Positions 9,746 through 35,987 of a stretch of DNA of 64,000 bases are shown here, one piece after another (the stretch's first letter is position 1; each line of letters starts with the position of its first letter). The position numbers and the translations under genes are program-made. This DNA comes from Candidatus Heimdallarchaeota archaeon (GTDB taxonomy: Archaea > Asgardarchaeota > Heimdallarchaeia > Heimdallarchaeales > Heimdallarchaeaceae). The stretch is from contig JAUVXV010000015.1 of the NCBI GenBank assembly GCA_030603365.1, forward strand, positions 1-64,000, read 5' to 3'. The notes below the pieces were generated by a model. That model searched no databases. It was not told the DNA's origin and was given only the letters and a program-made list of their open reading frames with translations.

Positions 9746-11053
9746 ATGAAAGTTTCAAAAGAGGATGTAAGATACTTAATCTTTGAAGGTGGAGGAGGAA
9801 AGGGTGTCGCTTATTTAGGAGCTGTTAAAGCTTTAGAAGAACTTGGTATTCTTTCTTATTTTGAAAAAGAAGTAAATGGGAAGACAGTTAATCGTTTGGA
9901 TTCTAAGAAAATTCATGGTGTTGCTGGTACTTCTGTAGGTTCATTTACAGCCCTTCTTATTGCATGTGGTTACACTCCGAAAGAAGCTGAGCATATTATC
10001 ACCGATAATATGGGTACTAAATTATTGGATTCAGTTGAATTTGATAAAATTCCAACTGTGTATACCTCTGAAAATCCTGCTTATGTTATTGATAATCCAT
10101 TTATTGAGACAGATCAATTGCTACTTGATAAATATTTGAGTAAATTTATAGAGAGTGAAAAGAAGACTTTTGGTGATTTCTTAAAAATTCCAGGAAAAGC
10201 TTTTTCTCAACTTAATTTTAAATTTCTTTCAACAGTGTTCAAATGGTATGTCTACTATGAAGCTAAGAAGGTAAACTTAGAAGAAGAAGAACATTCATAT
10301 CCACATGAGTTCATTGCTTCTGTGCCTGAAATTGTGAGCAAAGAAACAACAAAACGAGCATTTGATACGGTTGTGGGCAATCCTTCTGATAGTTTTAGTA
10401 GTCTAAAACACGAATATGGATATTTTCTTGCAACTGCTTTTCGAGAAGCTGTAGATAAGTGCATAGAACAAAAATCAGGAATAACAAATTGTACATTTAA
10501 ACAGTTCGCTGATTACTTTGAAATAGATTTAGTTGTTACTGGCTTTGATGTCGCGACTAATGAAGTCTTTTATTTCAGAAATAACGAAAAATGGGGAGAT
10601 CTTTGTGTAGCTGATGCAATTAGAATGTCAATTAGTATTCCTTTGGTTTTCAAACCTGTTTTAATGAGTATTGAAGAAGGAAAAATCAAATCAGCTCATA
10701 AAGAGAACTCACTGATTCACTACATTGTTGATGGTGGTTTAGGTAATTCTTTTCCTCTTCATGTATTTGATAAACCAAATTCTCAAAAATTGAATCCTAA
10801 AGTATTAGGCTTTAATCTAGACTTTATTCGACCATTTAGTGAAGGAAATACAACCTTTTTTGGTTTCTTAGAAAATATGTTCTTAGCTCTGCTGAAAATG
10901 ACTACAGAAACCCAATTTAGAACAAATGAAGAAAGAGATCAAGCTATCACACTCAATTCCAGAAATATCAGTGTTCTTGATTTTGACTATAAGGTCTTAC
11001 CTACTAATTTGATTGAAGAGTCTAGGAAAACAACATTAGAATACTTCCAGTAA
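9746..11053 (+). CDS. Patatin-like phospholipase
   Basis: GGGGKG oxyanion loop, GTSVG nucleophile motif, SISIP, DGG. Confidence 0.9.
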   Translation: MKVSKEDVRYLIFEGGGGKGVAYLGAVKALEELGILSYFEKEVNGKTVNRLDSKKIHGVAGTSVGSFTALLIACGYTPKEAEHIITDNMGTKLLDSVEFDKIPTVYTSENPAYVIDNPFIETDQLLLDKYLSKFIESEKKTFGDFLKIPGKAFSQLNFKFLSTVFKWYVYYEAKKVNLEEEEHSYPHEFIASVPEIVSKETTKRAFDTVVGNPSDSFSSLKHEYGYFLATAFREAVDKCIEQKSGITNCTFKQFADYFEIDLVVTGFDVATNEVFYFRNNEKWGDLCVADAIRMSISIPLVFKPVLMSIEEGKIKSAHKENSLIHYIVDGGLGNSFPLHVFDKPNSQKLNPKVLGFNLDFIRPFSEGNTTFFGFLENMFLALLKMTTETQFRTNEERDQAITLNSRNISVLDFDYKVLPTNLIEESRKTTLEYFQ

Positions 11054-11128: not shown

Positions 11129-13132
11129 ATGTCAAATTTTAAAAAATACTTAGTTGGAGATTTTTCACTTATTGTACTTTTTTCAATTATATTCTTGTTT
11201 TTCTTTCAGACACTTTCCGATTTAGTAGAAAGAATTTATGCTTATGCTTTACTTAATCTAGAACCAGATGAAAATATTCTTGGATTATTATTCCTACTCT
11301 CACCTTTGGTATTGTTGTTCTTTTGGAAAAAAATACCAGATTTAGCTCTACTAATATCAGGTGAACTCATTATAATATCTCGATTGGTTGAACCTTTTGT
11401 AACAGGATTGTGGGTATATATCTTTGCAGGGCTCTCGGTAGCAAGTTTCTTAGTATTCTTTCCTGGATTTATCAGTCGGATTAAGAACAGAGAGGAAAAA
11501 GTTGGTTTTGATTTCGGTATCGGTCTAGCTTCAGCAGTAGGCTTATCTATTCTCTTTAGAACAGCAAATGCTACTATAGATATTTCACAATATGGTTGGT
11601 ATCAGGTAATAGGTTGGTTTCTAGGTATAATTGCATCACTAATACTTGTAGGATTGTATTTTAAATTCAAAACTAAATCAACTGAAAAAACTGAAGAAGA
11701 AAGAGAAAAGGTAAAATCCAGTTTCTGGAAGGTTCTCGGATTATCTATGGGGATTTTCAGCATTTTCATTGCTATATGGTTTACTTTCATGAGTCCAACA
11801 GTCATTTCCAGATGGACAGAAGGGAATTACATAGGGATAGTAATTGGTATTATGATTATGCTAGGAGCTTTTATCGGATTGAAACTCTGGAAACCAGATT
11901 TAGTTAACTACCTTAAACCTTGGATGTTATGGATGTGGAATGGTGTGTTTGCTTTATCCATGACTCTGACTGTGCTTGTTCATCAGATATTCTTCCCAAG
12001 TGGGTCAGCTGATTATCCTCTGTTAGCTCCTGCAACTGCTTGGTATCACCAAATACCTCTAGTAATAATGATTATAGCATCCCCGATATTATACCTTGAT
12101 TTCACTCTACTCACTAAAGAATTAATTAAGTTGAAACCTAAACCAGCAAAGCTGGGAGGAAGTTTTGTCATTGGTGGATTATTTATCATAATAATGATTT
12201 TTGTTCAAGTACTTCCTAATGTTTGGGGTCATCTTACTCCGATCAGTTTGGGATTCAGAGATCAATATTGGTTAGCATTCTTTATACCAGGACTTTTTGT
12301 AACATTAAGTACGCTTCTTGTAAAGAAAACTACTCTTACCTTTGAAAAAGTTGCGAAGAAATTCAATACTAAGCTTTTGATCTCATCCATCTTCAGTTTA
12401 ATCTTTATAGGAACTATTATCGGTGGTGTACTTACTGAACCTAGTCCCAATTATTCCGCAGATGGAAAAACTACACTGGTTATAATGACATTCAATGTCC
12501 AACAAGGAGTTAATGAAACTGGAGATAGGAACTACGATGGGCAGTTGGAACTAATCAGACAAGTTGATCCAGACATCATTGGTTTACAAGAATGTGATCC
12601 AACTCGCATATCCGGTGGTAATCTAGATATTGTACGCTATTTTGCTTCTAAATTAAACATGTACGCATATTATGGACCTAAAACAGTGACAAATACTTAT
12701 GGCTGTGCAATTCTATCTAAATTCCCAATAACAAACCCATTCTCATTCTTTGCATCAAGTGATCAAGAACAGATTGGTTCAGCTCAAGCCCAGATAACCG
12801 TTGGAACAACTATTTTCAATGTTGCTGTTCATCATCCTGATGGAGACTCAGAACAAATTAGAATTAACCAAAATCTAGAGATGCTTGAATTAGTAAATGG
12901 ATTGTCTAATGTAATCTTTATGGGAGATTTCAACTATTATCCTTATAGTCAGATGTACAATGACACACTTGCAGCAATTTTAACTGATTCTTACAATTTT
13001 GTACATGGGACTCCAGCAACAGACAATATCGATCACATCTTTTTGAGTGCTGGAACAACTGTTTTGAGTGCTCAATACATAGAAGAAGGTCAATCAGATC
13101 ATCCCGCATATTGGATAGAGATTAACCTTTAA
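11129..13132 (+). CDS. Polytopic membrane protein with C-terminal EEP phosphoesterase domain (CWH43/PGAP2IP-like), paralog 1
   Basis: About 13 TM helices followed by MTFNV, DIIGLQECD, YGCAILSKFPI, MGDFN, IDHIF, SDH. Confidence 0.85.
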   Translation: MSNFKKYLVGDFSLIVLFSIIFLFFFQTLSDLVERIYAYALLNLEPDENILGLLFLLSPLVLLFFWKKIPDLALLISGELIIISRLVEPFVTGLWVYIFAGLSVASFLVFFPGFISRIKNREEKVGFDFGIGLASAVGLSILFRTANATIDISQYGWYQVIGWFLGIIASLILVGLYFKFKTKSTEKTEEEREKVKSSFWKVLGLSMGIFSIFIAIWFTFMSPTVISRWTEGNYIGIVIGIMIMLGAFIGLKLWKPDLVNYLKPWMLWMWNGVFALSMTLTVLVHQIFFPSGSADYPLLAPATAWYHQIPLVIMIIASPILYLDFTLLTKELIKLKPKPAKLGGSFVIGGLFIIIMIFVQVLPNVWGHLTPISLGFRDQYWLAFFIPGLFVTLSTLLVKKTTLTFEKVAKKFNTKLLISSIFSLIFIGTIIGGVLTEPSPNYSADGKTTLVIMTFNVQQGVNETGDRNYDGQLELIRQVDPDIIGLQECDPTRISGGNLDIVRYFASKLNMYAYYGPKTVTNTYGCAILSKFPITNPFSFFASSDQEQIGSAQAQITVGTTIFNVAVHHPDGDSEQIRINQNLEMLELVNGLSNVIFMGDFNYYPYSQMYNDTLAAILTDSYNFVHGTPATDNIDHIFLSAGTTVLSAQYIEEGQSDHPAYWIEINL

Positions 13133-13159
13133 TCTCTTCTTTTTCTTCTTAAAATCATA

Positions 13160-13702
13160 TCATTTCTTTTTGAACAAAATTACTCTTTCTTTTTGTTCCA
13201 GAAATTCAAATTTACCATCTTTAGTGATTTGAGGGAGGTATTTTTCTATAGGTTTGCCTGATTTTTGTATAGCTATAAGACCATCTGGTTTCAATATTCG
13301 ATGCATCTCAGTAAATACTTCATCAAGAATAGAGGTTAAATTATGAAAAACACCAAAGAAAAATGCTACGTCTATACTATCATTTTCTAAGGAAGTTTTT
13401 GTTACATCTTCTAGCATAACTTGAGCATTTGTTGTACTAGATTTACGTAGCTTTTTCTCAACTTTCTTAATGAAAATAGGATTAATATCATTTGCATAGA
13501 CATATCCATCTTCACCGACTATTTCAGCAGCTGGTAATGTAAAAAAACCTGGACCACATCCTACTTCGAGAACATTATCTCCTTTCTTTATACCTGCAGA
13601 GAGTAACATTTTATCAGCATTAACAAACAATCTAATAAGATAATCGTGTATCAATGATATAAATGCGGCTTCTACTCGATCATGGGTTGACATTTTATTC
13701 AA
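13160..13702 (-). CDS. Class I SAM-dependent methyltransferase
   Basis: VLEVGCGPG motif I, EMHRILKPDG. Confidence 0.9.
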   Translation of the reverse strand: MNKMSTHDRVEAAFISLIHDYLIRLFVNADKMLLSAGIKKGDNVLEVGCGPGFFTLPAAEIVGEDGYVYANDINPIFIKKVEKKLRKSSTTNAQVMLEDVTKTSLENDSIDVAFFFGVFHNLTSILDEVFTEMHRILKPDGLIAIQKSGKPIEKYLPQITKDGKFEFLEQKERVILFKKK

Positions 13703-13806
13703 ATAAACACAATGTAATATAGGTATTTTAATTTATTTCAATAACCATCAGCATAAGCTTGGTACATATTTCTAAAGTAAACTTAGAAGACAACTAATGT
13801 TTAGCG

Positions 13807-13875
13807 TTTGCGTAAATTGCAAGGGTTTATATACCCACGATGAGAATGACAATTAACGTTTGCACAATTTGCAAA
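13807..13875 (+). promoter_or_regulatory. Promoter with two TTGC-N7-GCAA palindromic operators flanking a TATA box
   Basis: TTGC-gtaaatt-GCAA (13808-13822), TTTATATA (13826-13833), TTGC-acaattt-GCAA (13860-13874), upstream of ATG 13890. Confidence 0.65.
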
Positions 13876-13889
13876 GGCATGTGATATTT

Positions 13890-14942
13890 ATGCCACAAAA
13901 CAATAAGGAAATCATAATAAATTTAAAAAATTTGACGAAAAGATTTGGTTCATTCACAGCAGTTTCTAATTTTAACCTAGAAATTAGGAAGGGTGAAATT
14001 ATAGGGTTACTTGGACCAAATGGAGCAGGTAAAACGACCACTATGAAGATGATAGCTAGGTTGTTAAATCCTGATGAAGGAGAAATTTGGATCAAAGATA
14101 ATGGCAATTTAGAATTATTAACTGGAAAAAATATGGTTACATTATTAGATCATATAGGTTTCTTGATTGAAAATCCAACTTTCTATGAACATATGACACC
14201 TCGAAAGATATTGTCATATTTTGCAATTTTGAAAGGGTATCCTAAGAAAAAGATACCAAAGAGAATCGAAGAAGTTCTAGCACTAGTAGGTTTGACTGAT
14301 TGGATTGACAAAAAGGTAGGTACGTTTTCAAAAGGTATGAAGCAGAAATTAGGTGTAGTTTCAGCACTTATTCATGACCCTGATATTCTGATTCTAGATG
14401 AACCTCAAACAGGTTTAGATCCAAAAGCTAGAAGGGAAACCCGAGAGATGTTTTTAAAACTAAAGAATCAGGGTAAAACTATTTTCCTTAGCAGTCATCT
14501 TCTTTATGAAGTTAGTGAGATTTCAGATAGAATCGCAATAATTAACCAAGGTAAGTTAATTGCTTTTGATACCATGAAGAACTTAGAAATGGCTTCTAAA
14601 GATATAAAACTTCAGATTCAATTAATGGAATTACCAGTTGATATCGAAAAGAAGAGAGTTGAACTAGAAGAAATAATTTTACCGTACACTGGACTGAAAC
14701 TTAAATCAAAAATAGTTTCTTTTAATCCAGAGCTGAAAATTTTTGAAGCTAGGTTCAATGGAGAATTGACAAACCAAAGAAAAATTCTAGAGGAATTGAC
14801 TAAAAAAGAGATTGACATAGTTAATTTTTCAGTTCCTAGAGCTAATGCTTTAGAGGATTTGTATATACAACTTATTGCTGGTGTAGCAACTGAGGAGGTT
14901 GCAGAACCGCAAGCAATTATCAAGGGAGATAGAGGTGATTAG
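13890..14942 (+). CDS. ABC-2 type exporter ATP-binding protein
   Basis: GPNGAGKTT, FSKGMKQK, ILDEP, SSH. Start moved to ATG 13890 because the ORF-track start lies inside the operator. Confidence 0.93.
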   Translation: MPQNNKEIIINLKNLTKRFGSFTAVSNFNLEIRKGEIIGLLGPNGAGKTTTMKMIARLLNPDEGEIWIKDNGNLELLTGKNMVTLLDHIGFLIENPTFYEHMTPRKILSYFAILKGYPKKKIPKRIEEVLALVGLTDWIDKKVGTFSKGMKQKLGVVSALIHDPDILILDEPQTGLDPKARRETREMFLKLKNQGKTIFLSSHLLYEVSEISDRIAIINQGKLIAFDTMKNLEMASKDIKLQIQLMELPVDIEKKRVELEEIILPYTGLKLKSKIVSFNPELKIFEARFNGELTNQRKILEELTKKEIDIVNFSVPRANALEDLYIQLIAGVATEEVAEPQAIIKGDRGD

Positions 14943-15854
14943 ATGAATATAGTAAAGGAAGAAACAATTGAATCACGTATGGATAAAGTTCCAGTTGGTT
15001 TAAAGAAGAGTTTAACACAAGTAGGAGCAACAGTAACCTTCGAATTTAAACGTAATCTGAAGAACATGTTCATTTCGTTTGGAATAGCAGTAGGGATCTA
15101 TATTCTCTCCTTAGTAATAAATTTGATTCAAGAAGGAAGAGGAGCTGAAAGTCCCGCATCTGCTGGAGAATACTTAACATCATATTTAGGCATGATAGGA
15201 TTCTTCATACTAATCATAGCAGTAATGTTCGCAGGAAATATTATCGCTTTAGATTATGACAAACATACTGGAAATTTAATATTTCCAAAAATTACTAAAG
15301 GAAGACTCTTCTTGGGAAGAGTAATTGCACGATATCTGTTATCTGCTTTAGCAGTTCTAGTATACTATGTATTAATTGGAGCTACAGCGCTAATCAAGTA
15401 TGGTGATCTACCAATAGAAATTTTGGCGTCGTTAGGGTGGGCAATGCTATATACATTTGCAGTTTTTGCTCTTGTTGCGTTTTTCAGTAGTTTTCTTAAG
15501 AAAACATCCACAACAATTGTAGTAAGTTTAGTAATGATGTTGATGGTATTCAACTTAGGTACTACTATTCTAATGATGACTGGAGTTACATGGGAACCTT
15601 TGTTCATTCTAACATACTATGCAAATATTATTACATATAGCGTTGGTTATTCAGTTGCAGGGGTGTTTGTAATCGGGTTACCCACTGAGAGATTTCTTGA
15701 AGGATCAATAGGACCTGGAGTGGGAGGAGATGGACCTACATTTATGCGATGGATAACACCTGATGTAACAGGAGCAATCATTGGAATGATAATTTATTCA
15801 GTAATATTAATTGGTGCAGCTTATCTCTTTTTCCGCAGAAGACAGCAAAAATAG
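14943..15854 (+). CDS. ABC-2 type exporter permease
   Basis: Six TM segments; abuts the ATPase stop codon; GGTGA RBS. Confidence 0.88.
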   Translation: MNIVKEETIESRMDKVPVGLKKSLTQVGATVTFEFKRNLKNMFISFGIAVGIYILSLVINLIQEGRGAESPASAGEYLTSYLGMIGFFILIIAVMFAGNIIALDYDKHTGNLIFPKITKGRLFLGRVIARYLLSALAVLVYYVLIGATALIKYGDLPIEILASLGWAMLYTFAVFALVAFFSSFLKKTSTTIVVSLVMMLMVFNLGTTILMMTGVTWEPLFILTYYANIITYSVGYSVAGVFVIGLPTERFLEGSIGPGVGGDGPTFMRWITPDVTGAIIGMIIYSVILIGAAYLFFRRRQQK

Positions 15855-15946
15855 AGTGAAGGATTTTGATGAGAACACACATAGTTTCACTATTTCTTTT
15901 GAACTCACCGGTTCAAGTAAAAGAATCTGTGTTCTCTTCCTTCATT
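15855..15946. other. Intergenic multi-stem RNA structure
   Basis: 15855-15863 pairs with 15938-15946; 15871-15879 with 15928-15936; internal hairpins ATAG/CTAT and TTGAAC/GTTCAA, plus TTCTTTT/AAAAGAA. Confidence 0.5.
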
Positions 15947-16001
15947 TTAATACCTTTTCAAATTAGAAAAGAATATAAAGAATCTACAGAGTTGATAATG
16001 C

Positions 16002-16904
16002 ATGGACGAGGTAAAATCTCCAAAAGTATCTGAAACACAAACTGATTTCAGAGTTAGTTGGCAGTTGTTTAAGTCTAATTATAAAGCTTTTATTGCTACT
16101 GAGATTTTTGCAGTTCTAGCTTTTATCATAATCAATGCAATTATTATTGGAATTATAGTTTTGATTTTCTATTTAGCTCCAAACCTAGAAGTTGCCGATC
16201 TTAATCCAAGAACTGCATCCGATGTAAAAATAACTTTCAGGATGTATGGATTAATCGCAATCTTAGCATATCTAACTATGGCTGGTTTTTTGTATTCTCA
16301 ATATGGTCTTGCGTATGATATTTTTTCCTCAGGTGACATGTTTACTGAATTCAAAAAAGCATTCAGTTATTTTAAAAGCCATTGGTGGAAATACATCTTA
16401 CTAATATTTGTCACAGGTTTTGGGTTCTTGATTCCTGTAAGACGAATTGGAGAAAATCCTCCTAGACCGATTAGTGATCAAGCTGAAATCCTATCAATTA
16501 TTTTCATGGTTTTTAGGGTTGTTATTCTATTTGTATTCCTGGTTTTATTTAGTGCTACTTTACCAAGTGTAACTGCTCAAGGTAATCTCAAAAACAGTTT
16601 TGTAGAATCAATACGTATAGTAAAGAAAGATTACAAGAGACTCCTGAAAAGCTGGGGAATATATTTCATAATTTTTACATTACCAATATTCGCAGTTTCT
16701 TTAACGCTAACACTACTCATGCCAATCATCACAGGAACTGTCTGGGTAACAATTCTAATTATATTATTAATCTTGCTTTATGCAATTAAGTTGTTTATCG
16801 GTTTTCCAATGATGTCTTTGATTGCCACTAGAATATATAATACTGTCAATTTTGAGAGATTCAAACCACTTGTAGAAGAAAAAAATACATCTAAAAGAGA
16901 GTGA
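16002..16904 (+). CDS. Integral membrane protein of unknown function
   Basis: About 6 TM helices in a duplicated arrangement; same strand as the ABC genes and the regulator. Confidence 0.8.
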   Translation: MDEVKSPKVSETQTDFRVSWQLFKSNYKAFIATEIFAVLAFIIINAIIIGIIVLIFYLAPNLEVADLNPRTASDVKITFRMYGLIAILAYLTMAGFLYSQYGLAYDIFSSGDMFTEFKKAFSYFKSHWWKYILLIFVTGFGFLIPVRRIGENPPRPISDQAEILSIIFMVFRVVILFVFLVLFSATLPSVTAQGNLKNSFVESIRIVKKDYKRLLKSWGIYFIIFTLPIFAVSLTLTLLMPIITGTVWVTILIILLILLYAIKLFIGFPMMSLIATRIYNTVNFERFKPLVEEKNTSKRE

Positions 16905-16908
16905 ATAT

Positions 16909-17232
16909 ATGAGTTCTGAGAAGGATATGGAAATTGATAAAGGAACATCAATAAAAGATGAATTTCTAGTTACAGATCCTTCAGCTGTTCCAGTTATGTT
17001 TCATAATAAAAAAAACTTAATCCTGAAACTATTAATTCAGAACGAAATGACTATTATTGATTTGAAACATAAAACAGGAATGAATCCTGGAACAATTAAA
17101 AGACATCTAAATGATTTATTAGAGTTCAATCTAATTTATATCTCTAGAGAACAAATAAGTGACTATGGTATTGTAATGAAATATTACATAGCTACAGCTA
17201 AGAGATATAAATTTGAAATGTCTTGGCCTTAA
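16909..17232 (+). CDS. Winged-helix (ArsR-like) transcriptional regulator
   Basis: ILKLL...MTIIDL...PGTIKRHLNDL...KYY. Confidence 0.85.
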   Translation: MSSEKDMEIDKGTSIKDEFLVTDPSAVPVMFHNKKNLILKLLIQNEMTIIDLKHKTGMNPGTIKRHLNDLLEFNLIYISREQISDYGIVMKYYIATAKRYKFEMSWP

Positions 17233-17409
17233 ACTGTTGACAATAAGTAAGAGATTACTCTATTCATGTAAATATCACAACTTGTGACCATAAATTGTGA
17301 TTTATGCTTTTAATAATTGAATTATCCTTTGATTCATGAGTACTCCAAGATATCTTCCTACAAAACGAGATTTCAGAAACATTAAAAAATAATATTATAG
17401 ATAATATCA

Positions 17410-17676
17410 TTGGTGATAAAAGTGAACAAAAAGAAGGTTGGAACTGTATTCAAATTCTTCGTACAACCTAGTGTCGCAGCAATTGAAGTAGAAAGAAAGC
17501 TAAGCATTGGTGATGAGTTACTTTTTCTAGGTGCAACAACCGATTTCAGAATGAAAGTAGTTTCAATGCAGATAGAGGGTAAAGAAGTAGAAGTTGTTAA
17601 GAAAGGTCAACAAGTTGGTATTAAGGTTCCCAAAAGAGTTAGACCAAATGATGATGTATTCAAAATAGAAGAATAG
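17410..17676 (+). CDS. Stand-alone translation-elongation-factor-like beta-barrel protein
   Basis: VGTV.KFF...VAAI...GATTDF...SMQI...GQQVGIKV...VRPND. Confidence 0.75.
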   Translation: MVIKVNKKKVGTVFKFFVQPSVAAIEVERKLSIGDELLFLGATTDFRMKVVSMQIEGKEVEVVKKGQQVGIKVPKRVRPNDDVFKIEE

Positions 17677-17702
17677 AAAAAAAAAGAAGTGGAGTAAGAG
17701 CA

Positions 17703-19055
17703 TTACTTCTTTGATTGTTTTCTAGATATGATATAGATTATTGATATAATCGAGAAAATGGACATAATAAGAAGTAAATAGTTAATTGTAAATTCAGAAA
17801 TTACAGACATGTAATTCAAGGGATATAAATCATCTCCACCTATACCATCGACCTCATAAATACCAGATATCCACTCATCCCAATAATTTCCTTCTGAAGT
17901 TCCTTCATGATACCATTTATTATCAACACCAATATCGGATGCTTGTGAGGTACCTCCATCATTATTACCCACAAAAGCATTATGATGAATCACATTGAAA
18001 CTACAAAATTCATAGATTTGAACACCATACCCGCTGTTTTCAAAGAGAAGATTGTTGTGGATTTCACTAAAAATTACACGATGTAAGAATATTCCAATTG
18101 CACTACCCTCGCATATATTATTGGAAATAGTTCCATTTTCACAGTAGTACAACAATATAGCTGTGTCTGAATTATCTATTTCATTATGTGTTACAAGAAG
18201 ATAGTTAGAATTTAAGAGATATAACCCTTCTCCACCATTATTATTAAGTGAATTTCTTGTTATTGTTAAATCATCAGATCTATCGGTTATTATTCCTACC
18301 CAGTTATTATCGACATTATTCTGAGTGACAGTTGTATAATTGCATAGATCATCGATAAAGATTCCATTGTCTGTACTTAATGTGATGGTATTATAGCTTA
18401 TCCATGCTGATTCAGATTTATGAAGGACTAAACCATTATTATAACTAGTGTAGATGGTATTCCCATCTATTGTACAATCGCTTGAAAAGAGTAAAACTAT
18501 TCCATCCCAAGCCCATTGACAGGTGTTGTCAAGTATCTCACAATGGGGAGAATATTCTAGTTTGATTGCATTATCTGAGAAATCAAGGCATGTATTATCA
18601 GAAATAAGAATATTTGGAGTATTTTGTAGATAAATCCCTATTGATGCTTCTCCCATTATATTGTTAGCAATTAATGCAGTACCTGATGGCACAGAATCAA
18701 TAAAAATACAAATATCTACCAATATAATATAATTATATTCTATAACAAAATACTTTGTAGTTCCAGTAACATAAATTCCATTTTCAGAGTTTGCACTTAT
18801 ATTATAATCGTTTATCACGTAGGGGTTATTGGACTCCCCTGTTCCATCCCCCAAGCTAAAAGCTGCTAATGCTGTATCATTAAGAATTTCAATAGCCCCT
18901 CTTTGTGGTGAATAACTTAGTCTGTTTTCATTATCTATCTGATCTAACGAGTATGCAATAGTTGTCTTGGATGAATGCATAAGAAGAGGTATAGATAAGA
19001 GTCCAAGAATAAGTAGAAGAATAATGCTTTTTTTATTTAATGGTTTTAGGTTCAT
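17703..19055 (-). CDS. Secreted NosD-like right-handed beta-helix protein with C-terminal anchor
   Basis: Signal peptide, GTG...NPYVI, repeated GI.L..S....I..N units, GNYW...D.YPL, then ISEF+TM+basic tail. Confidence 0.88.
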   Translation of the reverse strand: MNLKPLNKKSIILLLILGLLSIPLLMHSSKTTIAYSLDQIDNENRLSYSPQRGAIEILNDTALAAFSLGDGTGESNNPYVINDYNISANSENGIYVTGTTKYFVIEYNYIILVDICIFIDSVPSGTALIANNIMGEASIGIYLQNTPNILISDNTCLDFSDNAIKLEYSPHCEILDNTCQWAWDGIVLLFSSDCTIDGNTIYTSYNNGLVLHKSESAWISYNTITLSTDNGIFIDDLCNYTTVTQNNVDNNWVGIITDRSDDLTITRNSLNNNGGEGLYLLNSNYLLVTHNEIDNSDTAILLYYCENGTISNNICEGSAIGIFLHRVIFSEIHNNLLFENSGYGVQIYEFCSFNVIHHNAFVGNNDGGTSQASDIGVDNKWYHEGTSEGNYWDEWISGIYEVDGIGGDDLYPLNYMSVISEFTINYLLLIMSIFSIISIIYIISRKQSKK

Positions 19056-19265
19056 AATTATTTCCTCAATTCAGTTAAATTTCTAATTTCTTTGTATATT
19101 CAGAAATAAAATGGTTCTACTAATAAATATGTCTGCTAGCATTACTATAAATCTAATGTATTCACTTCAAGGAAAATAGATATAATTGTTGCAAAATTGT
19201 TGCAATTTCATATTTACGTACTTCTTATATTTTTTCTATCCGATATCATATTGTTGGAGAACATT

Positions 19266-19550
19266 ATGGGGAAAAGGTATTGTTTCTATTGTAGAGAGTG
19301 TGAAATAAAACTTACTCTATTTGAAGAGGTTGGACAAAATTCTAAGCATCAAGTACACAACTATTATTGTTCGCAATGTGAGAAAATAGTCTATCATGAC
19401 ATCTGCTTAAATTGTCAGAGTAATCTTGAAAGAGTAATTGAAATTCCTATAAATATCCTAGAGAATACCAACGAAAAAGCAGAGAATGTTGAATGTCCAA
19501 GATGTAATAGTTTACTGACTGTAATTGTCTTTTTAGGAGAATGGGATTAG
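19266..19550 (+). CDS. Small zinc-binding protein with four CxxC pairs
   Basis: CREC, CSQC, CLNC, CPRC; ATG 19266 preceded by GGAG; ends in WD. Confidence 0.7.
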   Translation: MGKRYCFYCRECEIKLTLFEEVGQNSKHQVHNYYCSQCEKIVYHDICLNCQSNLERVIEIPINILENTNEKAENVECPRCNSLLTVIVFLGEWD

Positions 19551-19614
19551 AGAGATTAATTATCTTTTGAAGAAATCATTCTGGTGCGCTTGAAGTTTTT
19601 TAGATTGGTGTGCA

Positions 19615-20193
19615 TCAGAGCATTCGATCCATTTTATCCATTTCTAATTGATTGACTAACCAAGCAAATGCTTCAACTACTCCAAAACCAGTTAAAGCAC
19701 TACAATCAAAAACAGCAAACGTACGATCACGCATATCTAGATGTAGATTGAGAAGTTGAATCATCATTGGAGCTTGAATAGCTGCAGGAAGGTCTTGTTT
19801 ATTTGCTAAAATCAAAGCAGGAACATTTTCTAGAATTGGATTATTGAATAAATGAACTCTAAGTATATCTCGGGCTTCTGCTAAACGTTCTATGTCAGCT
19901 GCATCAAGAACGAATATAACTGCTGAACAACCAGGATAATGTATATCCCATAGAAATCTAAATTGCTCTTGTCCAGCAACATCTATAGTGGTAATATCCC
20001 ATCCCTCGAAATTAATAGTATCAATATTTTGACCAATTGTTGGTGTCAAGTCTGCTTGAAATTGACCTGTGTTAATAAATTTGGTTAAGGTTGTTTTTCC
20101 TGCTGCATCAAGTCCCAAGATTAAAATCTTAGCTCTTTTCTCGGTTTTTAGTTTCTTCATCAACCATCGAGAAAAATTTGACATAAAACTCAT
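19615..20193 (-). CDS. Arf-family small GTPase (eukaryotic signature protein)
   Basis: G1 GLDAAGKTT, G2 PTIG, G3 DVAGQ, G4 NKQD, G5 CSAL; amphipathic N-terminal helix. Confidence 0.93.
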   Translation of the reverse strand: MSFMSNFSRWLMKKLKTEKRAKILILGLDAAGKTTLTKFINTGQFQADLTPTIGQNIDTINFEGWDITTIDVAGQEQFRFLWDIHYPGCSAVIFVLDAADIERLAEARDILRVHLFNNPILENVPALILANKQDLPAAIQAPMMIQLLNLHLDMRDRTFAVFDCSALTGFGVVEAFAWLVNQLEMDKMDRML

Positions 20194-20453
20194 TTTGATA
20201 CTCCGTTGTGATGTACTTTCTCTGAAACTTGTTTCGAATTCAGCTGAATTAATGATATAAATAATATTGTATTGTTTTTAAGATTACTGATGGTCTGCTT
20301 CAGTTTGTTATGTACTTGAAATATGTTTAAAGATTCTCCTCAACATATTTGTAGCGAAATACTTTAGTAAATCATCTGAAACACCAGCATGAAGATTACA
20401 TCAAAATCTAATTTATGGAATTTACATAATAACGGCATGGGAAAGAGAATAAA

Positions 20454-20987
20454 ATGAAAAAGATAGTTGTAATTGGAAATTCAGCTTCAGGAAAGTCCAC
20501 CTTATCTATGAAAATCAAGGAATTGACAAATATACCTGTTTTTCATCTTGACAAGATTCTATGGAAAAAAGGTTGGGAAAGAACTCCAGAAGATGAATTC
20601 AGAGCTAAACAGACTGAGATTCTGAATCAAGATAAATGGATTATTGATGGAGTTGCATACAAGTCTACTATAGAAGAAAGATTCTCCTCCTCTGACACAA
20701 TAATCTACCTCGATACACCTTTAGAAATCTGTAAGGAAAGAGCTAAGACTAGAATGGAGGAGGATTTAATCAGACCTAATCCATATGTAAATGAAGGATG
20801 TCCATATCCTTTGGAATTAATAAAAGAACAAAACAAAGTTATAGAAAGATTTCATAACGAGTATCGAAAGTATTCTCTTAATCTTTTGGAAAAGTTCAAA
20901 GATTCAAAAGAAGTGTATCATCTAATTGATGAAGAGGATGTAAAAAAGTTTCTAGAAAAAATAAATCTTAAAAATAATTTTATCTAA
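20454..20987 (+). CDS. P-loop kinase, adenylate-kinase-like (FlaR/topology modulation family)
   Basis: GNSASGKSTL, HLD...W..GW, WIIDG, DTIIYLD. Confidence 0.8.
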   Translation: MKKIVVIGNSASGKSTLSMKIKELTNIPVFHLDKILWKKGWERTPEDEFRAKQTEILNQDKWIIDGVAYKSTIEERFSSSDTIIYLDTPLEICKERAKTRMEEDLIRPNPYVNEGCPYPLELIKEQNKVIERFHNEYRKYSLNLLEKFKDSKEVYHLIDEEDVKKFLEKINLKNNFI

Positions 20988-21065
20988 ATGTAAAAAAATA
21001 AAAAAACTCTATGAAGGAATAGAAGAAAATTAGCAGATCTTTTGTCGTTCATTCAGTCTTTTCCT

Positions 21066-21440
21066 TTATTCTTTTATACCCCCTATTAGAAAGAGAATTC
21101 CGCCTATAAGAACTAGTATTCCTCCAGAACCACCTGCAACTAATCCTAATACAATGAGAATAATTCCCAACAAAACGCGATTCTTAATTGGTGTACCTAT
21201 TTTGAGTTGTAATTGCAACCAACTCCAAACTAGTAGTAGAACAAGGAAACCTAACACAATCATAATTAATCCATTAAGCCACCTAATTCCGGAAAATGAC
21301 AAAAATGACAGCTCACCAATTATTCCACTTACATCAGAAGCAATCGTTAAAATTCCTTGAATTATTAGAAGAAATCCACCTATTAAAGAATCAATATACC
21401 CCGCACTTATCCAATTTACCTTGTAGATAATAACAGACAT
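21066..21440 (-). CDS. Small Gly-rich membrane protein
   Basis: About 4 hydrophobic segments; a decayed paralog is present at 25501-25674. Confidence 0.75.
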   Translation of the reverse strand: MSVIIYKVNWISAGYIDSLIGGFLLIIQGILTIASDVSGIIGELSFLSFSGIRWLNGLIMIVLGFLVLLLVWSWLQLQLKIGTPIKNRVLLGIILIVLGLVAGGSGGILVLIGGILFLIGGIKE

Positions 21441-21553
21441 AGTTACGACTTAATGATTTCTATTATAAAAATATTGTATTTCAATTCTTTCATGAAATCA
21501 GAGACAGTATTATAATATTGAAAATAGAAGTCAAATTCTGATTCTGCAGCAAA

Positions 21554-22243
21554 TCAGTTCTTAAGACTTTTAATTAGTTTAGTGTAGTTTTCGGAGGTAG
21601 ATACTAAATCAATAAGACTTAGTGTTTGGAGAACCGCAGTTATCTCAGCCAAAGAAAGTTTCTCCACTATTTGAACAAATTCTTCTGATTTTTCATTGAA
21701 CAGTTTAGAAGTAATTCTTTTTGAACTATCCATCATCGAATTTGTAAATTGCTCTAGGTTAGCGAGTTCAGGATCAGGAACATCATAAAGGAGACCAAGC
21801 AATTGGATTATACTCTCCAGACAATTTGGTTTTGTGCAAAAGATTTTTTCATAAAATGATTCTACGAAGATGAATTTAGCTGTTCTAGCAAAGAGTTTCT
21901 CTGTCATAGGTTTGTCCATTGCTACTCGTTTTCCAACTAGAACAACAAACTCAGCATCTATAAGCTGTTGAATGTACCTATACAACGATTTGTCAGAGCG
22001 TCTTTTCTTCTCAACATACTCCTCGATTTTCTTATCATCTAGAATACCTTGTTTCTTAGCTTCCTTTTCGATGAATTTAACATAATCTTCTCCTATCTCT
22101 TTAACAGTTTTGTATCCATCTCTTAGTGACATAAAAATCGGATAGTAAATAGGATTACCCATAACCTGCAACTTGTCTTCATCTTTAATCAGCATAACTG
22201 GTATTTGTTTAAAATTTTCATCTATCACATCTTGTGTTTTCAT
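21554..22243 (-). CDS. Winged-helix transcriptional regulator with helical C-terminal domain
   Basis: IFMSLRDG.KTVKEI...SDKSLYRYIQQL...G.RV......EKLFARTAK; divergent from a GNAT gene. Confidence 0.8.
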   Translation of the reverse strand: MKTQDVIDENFKQIPVMLIKDEDKLQVMGNPIYYPIFMSLRDGYKTVKEIGEDYVKFIEKEAKKQGILDDKKIEEYVEKKRRSDKSLYRYIQQLIDAEFVVLVGKRVAMDKPMTEKLFARTAKFIFVESFYEKIFCTKPNCLESIIQLLGLLYDVPDPELANLEQFTNSMMDSSKRITSKLFNEKSEEFVQIVEKLSLAEITAVLQTLSLIDLVSTSENYTKLIKSLKN

Positions 22244-22304
22244 GGGAAACCCTAACTTTGCTTCTATCTACTGATTTTAAAGCTTTCGCACACACTAATA
22301 AGGT

Positions 22305-22362
22305 TTCTCATTCAACGAGAAGACTTATAAGTATCTCTAAGAAACAGTCTCAATGCTTGAGA
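22305..22362. promoter_or_regulatory. Divergent promoter with two TCTCA-N5-YGAGA operators flanking a TATA box
   Basis: TTCTCA-ttcaa-CGAGAA (22305-22321), palindromic ACTTATAAGT (22323-22332), TCTCA-atgct-TGAGA (22348-22362). Confidence 0.6.
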
Positions 22363-22386
22363 AAGCAAGAATGAAAAATATTCAAG

Positions 22387-23286
22387 GTGTTAATAATGGA
22401 ATTTAAAACATATGAAGAATCAAGATTGAAAGATCTTGGAGAATTAGTTAAAGATGTAGTTAGTAAATGGGATGTGGATCCATGGTATCCTACAATGGAA
22501 CAGTTAAAAGAAGCATACGATTCAAATGAAAACTTTACTCCAGAGACTCGTCATTTCTTGTATGATGGTGATAAGCTTGTCGCGTTTCTAAGCAGTGCAT
22601 TGGAAACTGAGGTTGATGGAGTACAATGGGGATCCATTCATATGCCTTTCATAAGAAAAGGTTATGAAAAAGTCGGAGAGAAGTTGTACAAAAAGACAAT
22701 GGGATTACTCAAAGAGAAAGGTGCAAAAGCAATCTATACCAGCTCAAGACCAGAACATGGTTATATTCCTGATTTATTGGAGAAATGGGGTTTTGAGAAG
22801 AAAGATGCAGGTGGGAAAAGGGTCATTCTCTCAGCCAGTAAGTTTTCTGATCCCGAATATAAAGAACCTGATTATTTTAAGGAATTAGATCTTAATGATG
22901 ATGAAGGTTTGAAGAAATTCAAAAAAGTCTATCTCAAAGCTCGAAAGGAAGTCAAAGAAGAAGATTTTGATAGTACTATGAAACAATTCCGAGAGCGAGA
23001 TTTGACTATTTCTTGCATTGTAGCAAAGAAAGATGAAGTCTTATCTTATGGTCTTCTTTACAAAGCTGATCAAGAAAACAGATCATTTCTATCTTCGATA
23101 CCTATCTTCAATGAAGAGCATAAGTATATCCTCAAAGAAGTATTTGACTACATGGTCAATAAAGCAACAGAAAAAGGCTATGAGGAAATTTATCATGCGT
23201 TGGTTGATGAAGAAAGAGAAGAGCTCTACAAAGATATGGGGATAGAATTTAGTCCTTCATTTAGATACGAACTTAAGTTAGACTAA
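22387..23286 (+). CDS. Tandem GNAT-fold protein
   Basis: Two GNAT-like halves, ending LLEKWGF and LYKDMG. Confidence 0.7.
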   Translation: MLIMEFKTYEESRLKDLGELVKDVVSKWDVDPWYPTMEQLKEAYDSNENFTPETRHFLYDGDKLVAFLSSALETEVDGVQWGSIHMPFIRKGYEKVGEKLYKKTMGLLKEKGAKAIYTSSRPEHGYIPDLLEKWGFEKKDAGGKRVILSASKFSDPEYKEPDYFKELDLNDDEGLKKFKKVYLKARKEVKEEDFDSTMKQFRERDLTISCIVAKKDEVLSYGLLYKADQENRSFLSSIPIFNEEHKYILKEVFDYMVNKATEKGYEEIYHALVDEEREELYKDMGIEFSPSFRYELKLD

Positions 23287-23300
23287 GTCAAGGATAAATT

Positions 23301-23330
23301 TCCTCTTTTCTTTCTTTTTCTTTTTTTTCT
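23301..23330 (+). terminator. Oligo-T terminator-like tract
   Basis: Long T-rich run between convergent genes. Confidence 0.45.
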
Positions 23331-23445
23331 AGTTTTTCAAAATATTTCTGGAAAAATAATTTACTTTCACATACAATTAGCTGAGTTTGCAGAAATTTTT
23401 TAATAAAATAAAGTAGAAAAAGAGAAAAAGTTGGAAAGAAAACCA

Positions 23446-25491
23446 TTACAGTTGAATTTCAATCCAGTATGCAGGATGATCAGAGTGACCTTTTTCAATA
23501 TATACAGCATCACTAACTTCTATTCCAGAACTTAGAAATATATGATCAATATTACCAGAACTATTGTAACCAAGCAAGTCTTCGAAAGAGCCGTAATTGA
23601 CGACCCAACTGTCATTTAGAACGGCAGTTGTCATACTATATTGCAGAGTGGTTTTATTGAAATTAAAATCACCCATGAATATGACATTCTCTAGACCGTT
23701 TACACGACTTAGCATTTGTTCAACTTGGGAGATTTTTGCATCATATGTTCTTGCAGCTGGATGGTTTGAGAAAACATTGAAAGTTAGGGTTGAATTAAAT
23801 ACAATCTGTGCCTGGGTTGTTCCTATTTGTTGATGAGTACTATACATAAAGAAAGCAGCAACATCCGCAATGGGATACTTCGACAGTATAGCTGTACCAT
23901 AGGTGTTTGCAACTGTTTTGGGTCCTCGGTAAGAATACATATTCAGTTTATCTGCAAAATATCTAACAACATCTGAGTTACCACCACCGATTCTGACGGG
24001 ATCACATTCCTGTAAAGCAAGAATATCTGGGTCAACACTTCTTATCAATTCTAGTTGTCCATCATAGTTTTTTTCGCCTGATTGGTTTACACCTTGTCTA
24101 ATATTGTAGGTCATGATTATTAGTGAAGTTCTCCCTTCTTCTGGTGTTCCAGGATAAGGATTTGTAACAAAAGCTCCTACAACTGTTCCTAGGAATATCA
24201 ACCCTAATATCGTAAGAATGATGGATTTCGATTTAAGTTCTTTAGTTGTCTTTTCAAATTTCATAGTCTTCTTCTTGACTAAGATAATTGGTATTGTCAC
24301 GAATATACCAGGAATGAGAAAAGCTAGCCAGTATAAATCTCTGAATCCTGCGCTAATTGAACCCATATATCCCCAAACGTTGGGAAGTACTTGCATAAAT
24401 ATCATTATTAATATGTATAGTCCTGCACCTAAAGTAAAACTTCCACCTATTTTTGCTGGTTTTGGTTTTATTTTCAGTAATTCTCTTGATAATAGAATAA
24501 AATCAAGGTAAATTATTGGAGATAGAAGGATCATCAAGACTAAAGGGATATGATAAACCCAAGTCGTAGGTATTGCAATAATTGGGTAGGCGGCGGGATT
24601 ATCAGGGAAGAATAATCCATAGATTGGTATTATTTGATGTATGAGCACAGTCAAAGCTAGAGAGAGTGCAAAAAGTCCATTCCAAGCCCAGAGCATCCAC
24701 GATTTTAGTACATTCATTAAATCGGGTTTTAGAATCATTACACCGATGAACAAAGTTAACATAGCTAAAACGCCAATAACAATTCCAATATAGTTCCCTT
24801 CCGTCATTCTCGAAATAACTGTTGGACTAATAAATGTAAACCAAATGATTATGAAAACACTAGATAATCCAAGAGTTAGAAGAAGAATCTTCCCGAAATT
24901 TGCAGGACTTTTCTCTTCAACTTTATCTGTTTGATCAGGTTCATCACTTCGTAATAGTATTCCTACTAACATCAAAGTAGCAAGTATTCCTAGTACCCAA
25001 CCGATAATCTGATACCAACCATACACTGAGATATCTAATGTTGAGTTAACAGTTCTGAAGAGTATAGATAATGTTACAGCTATTGCTAGGGATATTCCTA
25101 GAGTTGTCCCAGTTTGTTGCTCTTTGTTTTTGATTCTTGTGAAATATGCAGGAAAGAAGATTAGGAAACTACTAACTGATATTCCAGCTAATATAAGAAA
25201 ACTTTCTCCTTTGAGTAATGGTTCTATTAATCGTGTAACAATGATTAGCTCTCCTAGAATAAACAAAGTCTTATCAGATATTGTCTTTCTAAAGAAGAGA
25301 AGTACTATAGATGAAAACAGAAATAATAATGCAAGAAGGTGCAGTGTAGGTTTCAATCCGAGTAAGGCATAATCATAAATTCTTTCAGCAAAATCTGATA
25401 GCATTTGGAAGAAGAACAGAAAAATTACACTGAAAATGATAAGTTCTGAATAATTGTTCTTAATAAGGTTCTTAAAATCTATCATAAACAA
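23446..25491 (-). CDS. Polytopic membrane protein with C-terminal EEP domain (CWH43/PGAP2IP-like), paralog 2
   Basis: Colinear with 11129..13132 over its full length; MTYNI, LQECD, GDFN, IDHIF, SDH. Confidence 0.85.
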   Translation of the reverse strand: MFMIDFKNLIKNNYSELIIFSVIFLFFFQMLSDFAERIYDYALLGLKPTLHLLALLFLFSSIVLLFFRKTISDKTLFILGELIIVTRLIEPLLKGESFLILAGISVSSFLIFFPAYFTRIKNKEQQTGTTLGISLAIAVTLSILFRTVNSTLDISVYGWYQIIGWVLGILATLMLVGILLRSDEPDQTDKVEEKSPANFGKILLLTLGLSSVFIIIWFTFISPTVISRMTEGNYIGIVIGVLAMLTLFIGVMILKPDLMNVLKSWMLWAWNGLFALSLALTVLIHQIIPIYGLFFPDNPAAYPIIAIPTTWVYHIPLVLMILLSPIIYLDFILLSRELLKIKPKPAKIGGSFTLGAGLYILIMIFMQVLPNVWGYMGSISAGFRDLYWLAFLIPGIFVTIPIILVKKKTMKFEKTTKELKSKSIILTILGLIFLGTVVGAFVTNPYPGTPEEGRTSLIIMTYNIRQGVNQSGEKNYDGQLELIRSVDPDILALQECDPVRIGGGNSDVVRYFADKLNMYSYRGPKTVANTYGTAILSKYPIADVAAFFMYSTHQQIGTTQAQIVFNSTLTFNVFSNHPAARTYDAKISQVEQMLSRVNGLENVIFMGDFNFNKTTLQYSMTTAVLNDSWVVNYGSFEDLLGYNSSGNIDHIFLSSGIEVSDAVYIEKGHSDHPAYWIEIQL

Positions 25492-33837: not shown

Positions 33838-33924
33838 TTTACTTCTATCCAGTTGCTATTTACAGTACTTTTATTTTTAAGTAGTATAATATATCTTTAA
33901 ATCTTCGTGAGGATTGAATAAATT

Positions 33925-35310: not shown

Positions 35311-35981
35311 TGAAGATACTAATCATCAATCCAAACAGTGACTTGGAAATGACTCAAGCAATTCAAGAAACAGCTGATGCCTTTGTAGATAGTAAAGTAC
35401 AAGTTATTTGCAAGCATACACCTGATGCACCAAAGTTCATTGAAACATATGAAGATCAGGTTAAAGCAGCACCTGGAATGATAAAATTAACCAGAGAAAA
35501 TGAGCAAGAGTTTGATGGATTTATAATTGCATGTCATTGTGATCCCAATCTAGATACATTGAAAGAGATAACGAAAAAACCTGTTGTGGGGATAGGAGAA
35601 GCATCCATGAAATTAGCTTCAATGTTAGGACATAGTTTTTCTGTTATTTCTATGACTGAGCAATCTATACCCAATAAAGAGGCTTTAATCAGGAAATATC
35701 ATCTTCAAGATGCTTTGGCTTCTGTGAGATCTCCAGATGAGAAACATAAAAACCTGCGTGATGAAGAGAAGTATTTTGAAACAGCTAAGCTTGCTATTGA
35801 GCAAGATAAAGCTGAAGTGATCGTTTTAGGTTGTGCAGGAATGACAGGATTAGATAAAAATCTGGAAAAGAAGCTTGGAGTTCCAGTTCTAGATGGAGTT
35901 ATATGTGCGCTAATTATCCTAACGGGTTTAGTTACATATGGAATCTCAACAAGTAAAATAAGAAGATATAACTCTTCATAG
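35310..35981 (+). CDS. Asp/Glu/hydantoin (allantoin) racemase
   Basis: MKILIINPNS, IIAC..DP, PVVGIGEA, VLGCAGM, VPVLDG; TAATG overlap with the upstream gene. Confidence 0.9.
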   Translation: MKILIINPNSDLEMTQAIQETADAFVDSKVQVICKHTPDAPKFIETYEDQVKAAPGMIKLTRENEQEFDGFIIACHCDPNLDTLKEITKKPVVGIGEASMKLASMLGHSFSVISMTEQSIPNKEALIRKYHLQDALASVRSPDEKHKNLRDEEKYFETAKLAIEQDKAEVIVLGCAGMTGLDKNLEKKLGVPVLDGVICALIILTGLVTYGISTSKIRRYNSS

Positions 35982-35987
35982 CATCTT

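Follow-up and report, generated by a model that had tools for sequence, protein, structure and literature searches.

The eukaryotic CWH43 protein acts on lipids (PMC4962981), and variants of its gene have been linked to normal pressure hydrocephalus (10.64898/2026.05.01.722067). A cluster of Asgard and Chloroflexota proteins near Cwh43 has already been published (Fossa et al. 2023, PMC10704324); that paper says of its 'Asgard/Chloroflexus group' only that size and organisation differ, and offers nothing on its function, fold, phylogeny or domains. Among bacterial relatives, the closest ones that have been characterised remove phosphocholine or phosphoethanolamine from GlcNAc rather than from lipids (PMC10704324). 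The genes of GPI synthesis in general have been traced to Asgard archaea (PMC12872458); neither that paper nor 10.1101/2024.07.03.601958 mentions CWH43 in its text or available supplements.

The window analysed here is a stretch of 64,000 nucleotides from a Candidatus Heimdallarchaeota archaeon (contig JAUVXV010000015.1). Two paralogous genes of the PGAP2IP superfamily were found in it (Table 1), both where an earlier note on this DNA had placed them. Their proteins are 57% identical over 682 columns, and a tblastn search of the whole genome revealed only this pair. The genes lie 10.3 kb apart on opposite strands and are not one unit; a promoter and terminator scan gave signals at chance level. 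In the record version of paralogue 2, the start is the ATG at 25485, two codons downstream of the TTG, which gives a protein of 679 aa. The pair is an old duplication inside Heimdallarchaeaceae and belongs to a side branch of the superfamily, referred to here as type A.

Table 1. Features of the two paralogous genes and the adjacent phospholipase gene.
Feature	Coordinates	Strand	Description
Patatin-like phospholipase	9746..11053	+	same orientation as paralogue 1, 75 bp upstream
Paralogue 1 (P0001)	11129..13132	+	667 aa; predicted MFS-fold 12-TM domain, helix 13, EEP phosphodiesterase domain predicted to face outward
Paralogue 1 TM1-12 (residues 9-401)	11153..12331	+	predicted MFS fold; collinear with both 6TM domains of PGAP2IP
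Paralogue 1 helix 13 (residues 412-436)	12362..12436	+	predicted to place the EEP domain on the outer side
Paralogue 1 EEP domain (residues 447-667)	12467..13129	+	N456, E488, H569, D600, N602, D635, D657, H658
Family motif common with Cwh43, paralogue 1 (residues 486-534)	12584..12730	+	
Paralogue 2 (P0002/P0033)	23446..25491	-	681 aa from TTG; architecture as in paralogue 1
Paralogue 2 EEP domain	23449..24132	-	catalytic motifs intact; five sequons
Family motif, paralogue 2	23869..24015	-	
Paralogue 2 membrane region	24160..25461	-	13 predicted helices

Homology of these proteins to CWH43/PGAP2IP spans the full length, that is, the TM region and the EEP domain. The predicted structure superimposes on PGAP2IP with a TM-score of 0.83 over 622 residues (rmsd 3.7), and the profile alignment with Cwh43 is collinear (99.5%). 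The PF23226 model recognises the two proteins with 73 and 55 bits (cut-off 27) at profile positions 7-169 of 239, the generic PF03372 model scores higher, and fungal Cwh43 gives more than 400 bits with PF23226. The earlier note had made its proposal depend on homology of the TM region to PGAP2IP, and this homology, to the two 6TM domains, is supported by the fold and by transitive profiles. The direct TM profile match between type A and Cwh43 is weak (19.7%, E 1e-3), neither window protein matches PF23021 or PF23022, and single-sequence searches of Pfam, NCBIfam and PDB sequences did not detect the TM homology.

The AlphaFold model contains 13 membrane helices and an EEP sandwich, and hydropathy gives 12 and 13 segments in the two proteins, in line with the approximately 13 helices counted previously. 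Comparison of predicted structures points to a 12-TM MFS fold: TM1-12 of paralogue 1 aligns with NorA with a Z of 18.6 (rmsd 4.5, 325 residues aligned), and all 50 of the fold matches listed are MFS-type. This fold, it can be noted, points to transport as much as to lipid presentation. MFS Pfam models matched none of the 82 TM domains and, among 30 complete proteins, a single one weakly; neither the MFS motif A nor conserved charged residues within the helices were seen, and most of the conservation is at the outer face. Outer loops hold the conserved polar residues of the membrane domain (R144, D151, R228, and R377), and counterparts of R144, R377, and W229 exist in Cwh43. The basic residues of paralogue 1 number 2, 2, 4, 8, 3, 4, and 6 in the inner loops versus 0, 0, 1, 1, 0, and 1 in the outer loops, and three sequons are present from residue 441 onward. 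Judging by this charge bias and the sequons, the EEP domain is predicted to be outward-facing.

The EEP fold and all six metal-binding residues were found in the window proteins. Human neutral sphingomyelinase (Z 20.8) is among the fold matches, as are TDP2, nocturnin, exonuclease III, and other EEPs. The residues of paralogue 1 listed in Table 1 are intact, including GDFN (599-602) and SDH (656-658). The earlier note had reported N, E, GDFN, and SDH in both proteins, which is correct; the family motif it quoted is matched exactly by both paralogues, and the Cwh43 motif that it gave has the same spacing in fungal sequences. The canonical EEP residues are invariant across the prokaryotic members. 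Fungal Cwh43, in turn, lacks four of the six metal ligands (N to T, D to Y, N to V, and H to T), and its type of active site (HSGQ, LSYLV, and TDT) is absent from the window proteins; H569, E488, and D657 are common to both. In GlcNAc-PDase, characterised in the same EEP cluster, the positions that correspond by motif are needed for hydrolysis (PMC10704324). Since the four ligands replaced in fungal Cwh43 are kept here, the window proteins are probably plain hydrolases that cut lipid head groups.

Type A, to which the window proteins belong, has members in both Asgard archaea and Chloroflexota. This analysis also delimited a rarer, uncharacterised family of Asgard proteins, type B (P0269-P0278 and L271); it occurs in 5 of 83 Heimdallarchaeia genomes and was not found in this genome or in 30 others of Heimdallarchaeaceae. 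Type B has the same architecture and canonical active site as type A (TM profiles 98.6%, E 6e-16) and matches all three PGAP2IP Pfam models. Its TM profile matches that of Cwh43 with an E of 1e-29, versus 1e-3 for type A, and type B and fungal Cwh43 are grouped in the tree with a support of 100/99. The AU test rejects a clade of Cwh43 with the window proteins (p-AU 1.5e-37), with all type A (p-AU 0.0025), and also with bacteria; in the EEP-only tree, the grouping of Cwh43 with type B is weakly supported (89/43). The eukaryotes in these trees are fungi only, on a long branch. Their sequences came from a scan of metagenomes with a short motif and were verified with Pfam, the fungal origin being deduced from architecture and introns; a length-filtered homologue search returned no fungal Cwh43. 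The final trees omit the sequence L243 (labelled Deferrimicrobium); on a different contig of the same MAG there is an EEP identical to one from Asgard archaea.

The trees thus bear out one part of the eukaryotic link suggested in the earlier note and contradict another. Fungal Cwh43 attaches among Asgard lineages, and no bacterial clade encloses the window proteins; however, type B is the much closer relative of Cwh43, and the window genes, on this phylogeny, are not its antecedent. Eukaryotic CWH43 groups with type B, its active site presumably rewired for lipid exchange. No prokaryote with two eukaryote-specific motifs was found in GTDB, PF23021 was not found above the cut-off in the bacterial phyla searched (301 Verrucomicrobiota and 301 Chloroflexota genomes), no type B relative was found in viral contigs, and plasmid matches are to the EEP domain only. 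In some members, the TM and EEP parts are encoded as separate genes; such split versions speak against the lipid head-group reading.

No conserved gene neighbourhood was found across 118 loci, which also speaks against that reading, as it does against lipid transfer on anchored proteins. The GlcNAc-linked substrates of the closest characterised bacterial enzymes are a further point against the lipid head-group reading. The patatin-like phospholipase gene is a possible lipid-degradation partner of paralogue 1, and an alpha/beta hydrolase gene adjoins two type B genes; these neighbours weakly favour a role in lipid head-group metabolism. The patatin adjacency is kept in only one close relative, and another orthologue has no patatin beside it. 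The genes do lie among C-terminally anchored proteins, as previously remarked, but this means little, as such tails are common: a crude screen detected them in 235 of 2920 ORFs genome-wide and in 5 of 27 ORFs within 10 kb of the pair, at least five also occur in 25 of 190 equal-sized stretches, and by the same screen the genes directly flanking the two paralogues all lack a tail. The genome has an archaeosortase-like gene. Across Asgard genomes, such genes are present in 30 of 251 versus 114 of 251 for PF23226; the ratio is 1/54 versus 32/54 in family f13 and 0/10 versus 10/10 in f2. Entire families carry only one of the two, and the distribution of PF23226 does not follow that of archaeosortase. 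Gaa1, Gpi16, PIG-U, and PigN were not detected in the genome with eukaryote-built models, which may miss remote homologues, nor was Frag1 (PF10277) in this 89% complete assembly; neither search had a positive-control match. A PIG-M-like match is below the cut-off, and one partial C13 match lies on a tailed surface protein.

We propose, with a probability of about one half, that each gene encodes a surface phosphodiesterase resembling phospholipase C and acting on lipid head groups. The protein would be a membrane-embedded, outward-facing, divalent-metal-dependent enzyme of the phospholipase C/sphingomyelinase type, in which the MFS-fold domain may bind a membrane lipid and bring its phosphodiester head within reach of the EEP site, where it would be cut with water. 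At the cell surface, such an enzyme may serve to turn over or scavenge the head groups of phospholipids or glycolipids; a guess at the substrates would be phospholipids that contain inositol or an amino sugar.

The complete 12-TM MFS fold could also be explained by a fusion of hydrolase and transporter, in which the EEP domain cuts soluble or glycan-linked phosphodiesters (sugar-phosphocholine, glycerophosphodiesters) outside and the membrane domain imports the product. The split two-gene versions, the sugar-linked zwitterions that are the substrates of GlcNAc-PDase, and a distribution that is broad and patchy and includes transfer to sediment bacteria, which suits a catabolic gene, agree with this; however, the near absence of MFS Pfam matches, the unseen motif A and in-helix charges, the outer-face conservation, and the lack of a transport role in the Cwh43 literature examined make it rather unlikely. 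A nuclease or nucleotide phosphodiesterase tethered to the surface is very improbable: TDP2, nocturnin, and exonuclease III belong to the same superfamily and are among the fold matches, but exonuclease III scores are weak and far under the cut-off, the sequence cluster is the Cwh43/GlcNAc-PDase group, and this reading would not account for a domain of 13 TM helices that is conserved in a lipid enzyme as well.

Two further readings assume exchange instead of hydrolysis. Transphosphatidylation of free membrane lipids, a Cwh43-like chemistry without a protein anchor, would suit the motif and outer-face residues common with Cwh43, and also H569 and E488, which both have kept; it seems improbable given that the canonical hydrolytic set is intact here and the known exchanger lacks four of those residues. 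Slightly less credence still is due to the idea of the earlier note, lipid transfer or exchange on C-terminally anchored surface proteins as a direct forerunner of GPI remodelling. Full-length CWH43 homology, an outer-face active site, the archaeosortase-like gene with about 235 tailed proteins, and the Asgard origin of GPI synthesis genes in general (PMC12872458) are in its favour. Nevertheless, the active site is unlike that of Cwh43, transamidase subunits, PigN, and Frag1 were not detected in the searches above, archaeosortase-like genes are far rarer than PF23226, tails are not clearly enriched near the pair, and homologues are numerous in Anaerolineae.

A broader scenario can be sketched, which we regard as speculative and on the whole unlikely. 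The PGAP2IP/CWH43 architecture would have been born and diversified in Asgard archaea, where its substrate would be a GPI-like lipid with inositol or an amino sugar, either free or attached to anchored proteins; eukaryotes would have inherited type B and turned the hydrolase into an exchanger by four ligand swaps, and the window proteins would be paralogues with the ancestral chemistry and the same kind of substrate. The tree, for its part, adds another GPI-related gene of probable Asgard ancestry. Prokaryotic homologues that combine the fold of Cwh43/PGAP2IP with an unaltered canonical active site are tractable for structural work and assays on the unclear mechanism of that enzyme, and they reveal which residues were altered as the eukaryotic form evolved. 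Type B proteins are the better test objects, and the window genes offer a side-branch comparison.

With PGAP2IP of mammals (gene CWH43) and the C-terminal portion of fungal Cwh43 (PF23022, PF23021, and PF23226), the window proteins share the whole architecture, the predicted fold, the exoplasmic position predicted for the EEP domain, and the motif around the catalytic Glu. They differ in sequence (identity about 13% in the TM region and 21% in the EEP domain) and in the active site, the canonical N, GDFN, and SDH being replaced in Cwh43 by T, SYLV, and TDT; the C-terminal extension of Cwh43 is missing, no Frag1 domain or gene was detected with them, and they are not the sister group of Cwh43. 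The MFS transporters NorA, SotB, and YajR have a similar 12-TM fold (Z 17-19, rmsd 4.5-5, about 330 residues), whereas the identity is about 11%, and an extra helix, the fused enzyme, and the absence of a visible MFS sequence motif set the window proteins apart. The characterised GlcNAc-PDase enzymes of Clostridia are soluble and single-domain, unlike these membrane-embedded proteins. The 'Asgard/Chloroflexus group' of the GlcNAc-PDase cluster has the same Asgard and Chloroflexota make-up and an equal closeness to Cwh43/PGAP2IP, and type A is very likely the same set of proteins (PMC10704324).

Both ORFs reported in the earlier note were recovered, on opposite strands with 10.3 kb between them (see the table), and both carry the quoted family motif and catalytic residues. 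The level of identity between the two proteins in a pairwise alignment is 57%; they are the only copies of the family in the 3.65 Mb genome (89% complete), and their close homologues are labelled Heimdallarchaeaceae or Heimdallarchaeota. In the tree, the paralogues fall into two sister subclades, each with relatives from other genomes, which dates the duplication to before this species. AlphaFold models show 13 helices in the membrane, followed by an EEP sandwich (pLDDT 84 over the full length and 94 in the TM part). Basic residues alternate cleanly from loop to loop, which puts the N-terminus on the inner side of the membrane and the EEP domain on the outer; several N-glycosylation sequons are found in the EEP domains.

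Features of the window, of its genome (G000) and of the type B family
Feature	Location	Remarks
Paralogue 1	window 11129..13132 (+)	667 aa
Paralogue 2	window 23446..25491 (-)	681 aa from TTG
TPR protein	window 4951-7371	806 aa; short C-terminal domain longin/roadblock-like by eye
Arf-family small GTPase	window 19615-20193	PF00025, E 5e-44; also near the paralogue 1 orthologue in a relative (L298)
Two large surface proteins	window 28232-30271, 38204-42721	nearly identical C-terminal VPEL-TM-basic tail, PEF-CTERM-like
Four-gene block	window 32464-37364	sizes as in the amidohydrolase, PLP decarboxylase, racemase and aminotransferase cluster directly adjoining a paralogue in L299
Archaeosortase/exosortase-like gene	L306:526-1614 (G000:C14:219525-220613)	PF09721, E 1.4e-12; convergent with a glycosyltransferase-like gene
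Surface protein	L307:1367-3052 (G000:C1:377366-379051)	partial peptidase C13 match, apparent His-Gly/Cys dyad; C-terminal TM and basic tail
Type B loci and proteins	L001:298-2190, L004:1333-3216, L002:232-2166, L271, L274, P0272-P0278	three PGAP2IP Pfam domains; canonical active site

With single window sequences, only PF03372 and part of PF23226 match in Pfam. The full model, by comparison, superposes on PGAP2IP with a TM-score of 0.83 over 622 residues and on fungal Cwh43 with 0.82, of which the EEP domain alone explains only about 0.3; its best structural match is a Chloroflexota cluster (0.93). Cwh43 genes for comparison were taken from metagenomes, their identity being confirmed by Pfam. 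Profile alignment of fungal Cwh43 with the window family (type A) is collinear (99.5%), although the match becomes weak when restricted to the TM region (19.7%, E 1e-3, against 1.4% for a reversed control). When all the proteins collected were scored with a TM-only profile built from fungi, a further Asgard family, type B, came to light; it matches PF23022, PF23021 and PF23226, and its TM profile reaches 99.8% (E 1e-29) against Cwh43 and 98.6% (E 6e-16) against type A. By transitivity, this also confirms that the TM regions of the window proteins are homologous to those of CWH43/PGAP2IP. The first outcome that the earlier note named as refuting its idea, a TM region lacking such homology, is therefore not what was observed. 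Taken with the trees below, the window proteins are real, full-length, but side-branch relatives of CWH43/PGAP2IP.

Trees were built with IQ-TREE (LG+C20+F+G4 PMSF) from a sample that covers few bacterial phyla and represents eukaryotes by fungi only, on a long branch; the group labels were assigned with the first tree already in view. Type B joins Cwh43 at 100/99 in both the full-length (76 rows) and TM-only trees, which are unrooted. The EEP-only tree, for which soluble EEPs of bacteria served as root, puts Cwh43 within a clade with Asgard deeper branches (95/90), and type B accompanies it weakly (89/43). The window proteins lie deep in type A amid Asgard rows in the full-length tree, and most bacteria form one clade (100/96) within type A. 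In AU tests (41 rows), trees joining Cwh43 to the window clade (p 1.5e-37), to the whole of type A (p 0.0025) or to its bacterial members (p 4e-10) were rejected. The suggestion that the window genes are antecedents of CWH43 is thus not borne out. We infer that the superfamily diversified in Asgard archaea, that type A passed to bacteria and that eukaryotes took the type B branch, which leaves the window genes as paralogous members of a side branch. Type B was detected in 5 of 83 Heimdallarchaeia genomes, in none of the 31 of the window's family and in none of the 602 Verrucomicrobiota and Chloroflexota genomes searched; its named members are Hodarchaeota, Kariarchaeaceae, Promethearchaeota and one partial Hermodarchaeota. 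Among prokaryotic proteins, these are at present the strongest candidates for the nearest kin of eukaryotic CWH43. For GPI machinery as a whole, an Asgard origin has already been published (PMC12872458); no mention of CWH43 by name was found in that paper or in a structure-based ESP survey. The weight of the finding lies mainly in the type B-Cwh43 grouping and the active-site contrast.

PF23226 was detected in 114 of 251 Asgard genomes, often in 2 or 3 copies, either as fused proteins or divided between a TM gene and an EEP gene. Among the matches listed in a family-motif scan of GTDB (at least 120), Anaerolineae and other Chloroflexota make up most, with many Asgard archaea and scattered Verrucomicrobiota, Spirochaetota, SAR324 and Planctomycetota; Hydrogenedentota also carry the family. 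Very likely, this is the 'Asgard/Chloroflexus group' that Fossa et al. (PMC10704324) assigned, along with Cwh43, PGAP2IP and GlcNAc-PDase, to a single cluster of EEP proteins. The split versions from other Asgard lineages (L277, L278, L283, L284, L286, L251, L256, L261), each a TM gene of 400-430 aa with an anchored EEP gene of 280 aa directly behind it, group as a separate clade in both the full-length tree and the TM tree. The EEP protein of a Candidatus Deferrimicrobium-labelled MAG (L303, G404:C99) is identical to an Asgard one (L284, G273:C99), which points to a mis-binned or mislabelled assembly. Distant EEP proteins of 600-670 aa (P0280-P0282, P0284, P0285; one cluster named Dehalococcoidia) make up a separate clade of the EEP tree, and their N-terminal regions give hardly any score with each of the three TM profiles. 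A mostly Thermoplasmatota ESM Atlas cluster (761 aa, 77 members) has PF23226 and similar features and lies outside the tree samples.

No conserved neighbourhood of the family genes was found, apart from the patatin gene next to paralogue 1, which a single close relative shares; the gene-size match with L299 suggests loose local synteny within the family. The genes had been described as lying among many C-terminally anchored proteins, and hence as possibly transferring or remodelling anchor lipids. Tails, carried by 8% of ORFs genome-wide, are indeed denser here, but only mildly: of windows of equal size, 13% have as many. An archaeosortase-like gene is present on another contig; within this genus, 14 of 19 genomes have such a gene, as do few other Asgard genomes. 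They do not track the family (30 against 114 of 251 Asgard genomes, by a model that may miss remote sortases). In searches run without a positive control, Gaa1, Gpi16, PIG-U and PigN were not detected in this genome or in four type B genomes, nor Frag1 in this genome. Together with an active site unlike that of Cwh43, this makes remodelling of protein anchors by the window proteins improbable.

TM1-12 of the model resemble MFS transporters (NorA, Z 18.6, rmsd 4.5, 325 residues), all 50 rows among the matches listed being MFS-type, and those polar residues that are conserved in the TM domain are mostly in outer loops. Scavenging hydrolase-transporter fusions are a possible but less likely reading. 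Most likely, with a probability of about one half, the window proteins are surface phospholipase-C-like phosphodiesterases for lipid head groups. In the alignment, N456, E488, D600, N602, D657 and H658 (paralogue 1 numbering) are kept in all prokaryotic types, and this intact canonical site argues for ordinary metal-dependent hydrolysis, unlike the lipid exchanger. In GlcNAc-PDase, the matching residues, Glu excepted, are required for hydrolysis. In fungal Cwh43, a lipid exchanger whose activity is described in PMC4962981, these positions read T, E, Y, V, D and T; loss of the metal-site residues may underlie its lipid exchange.
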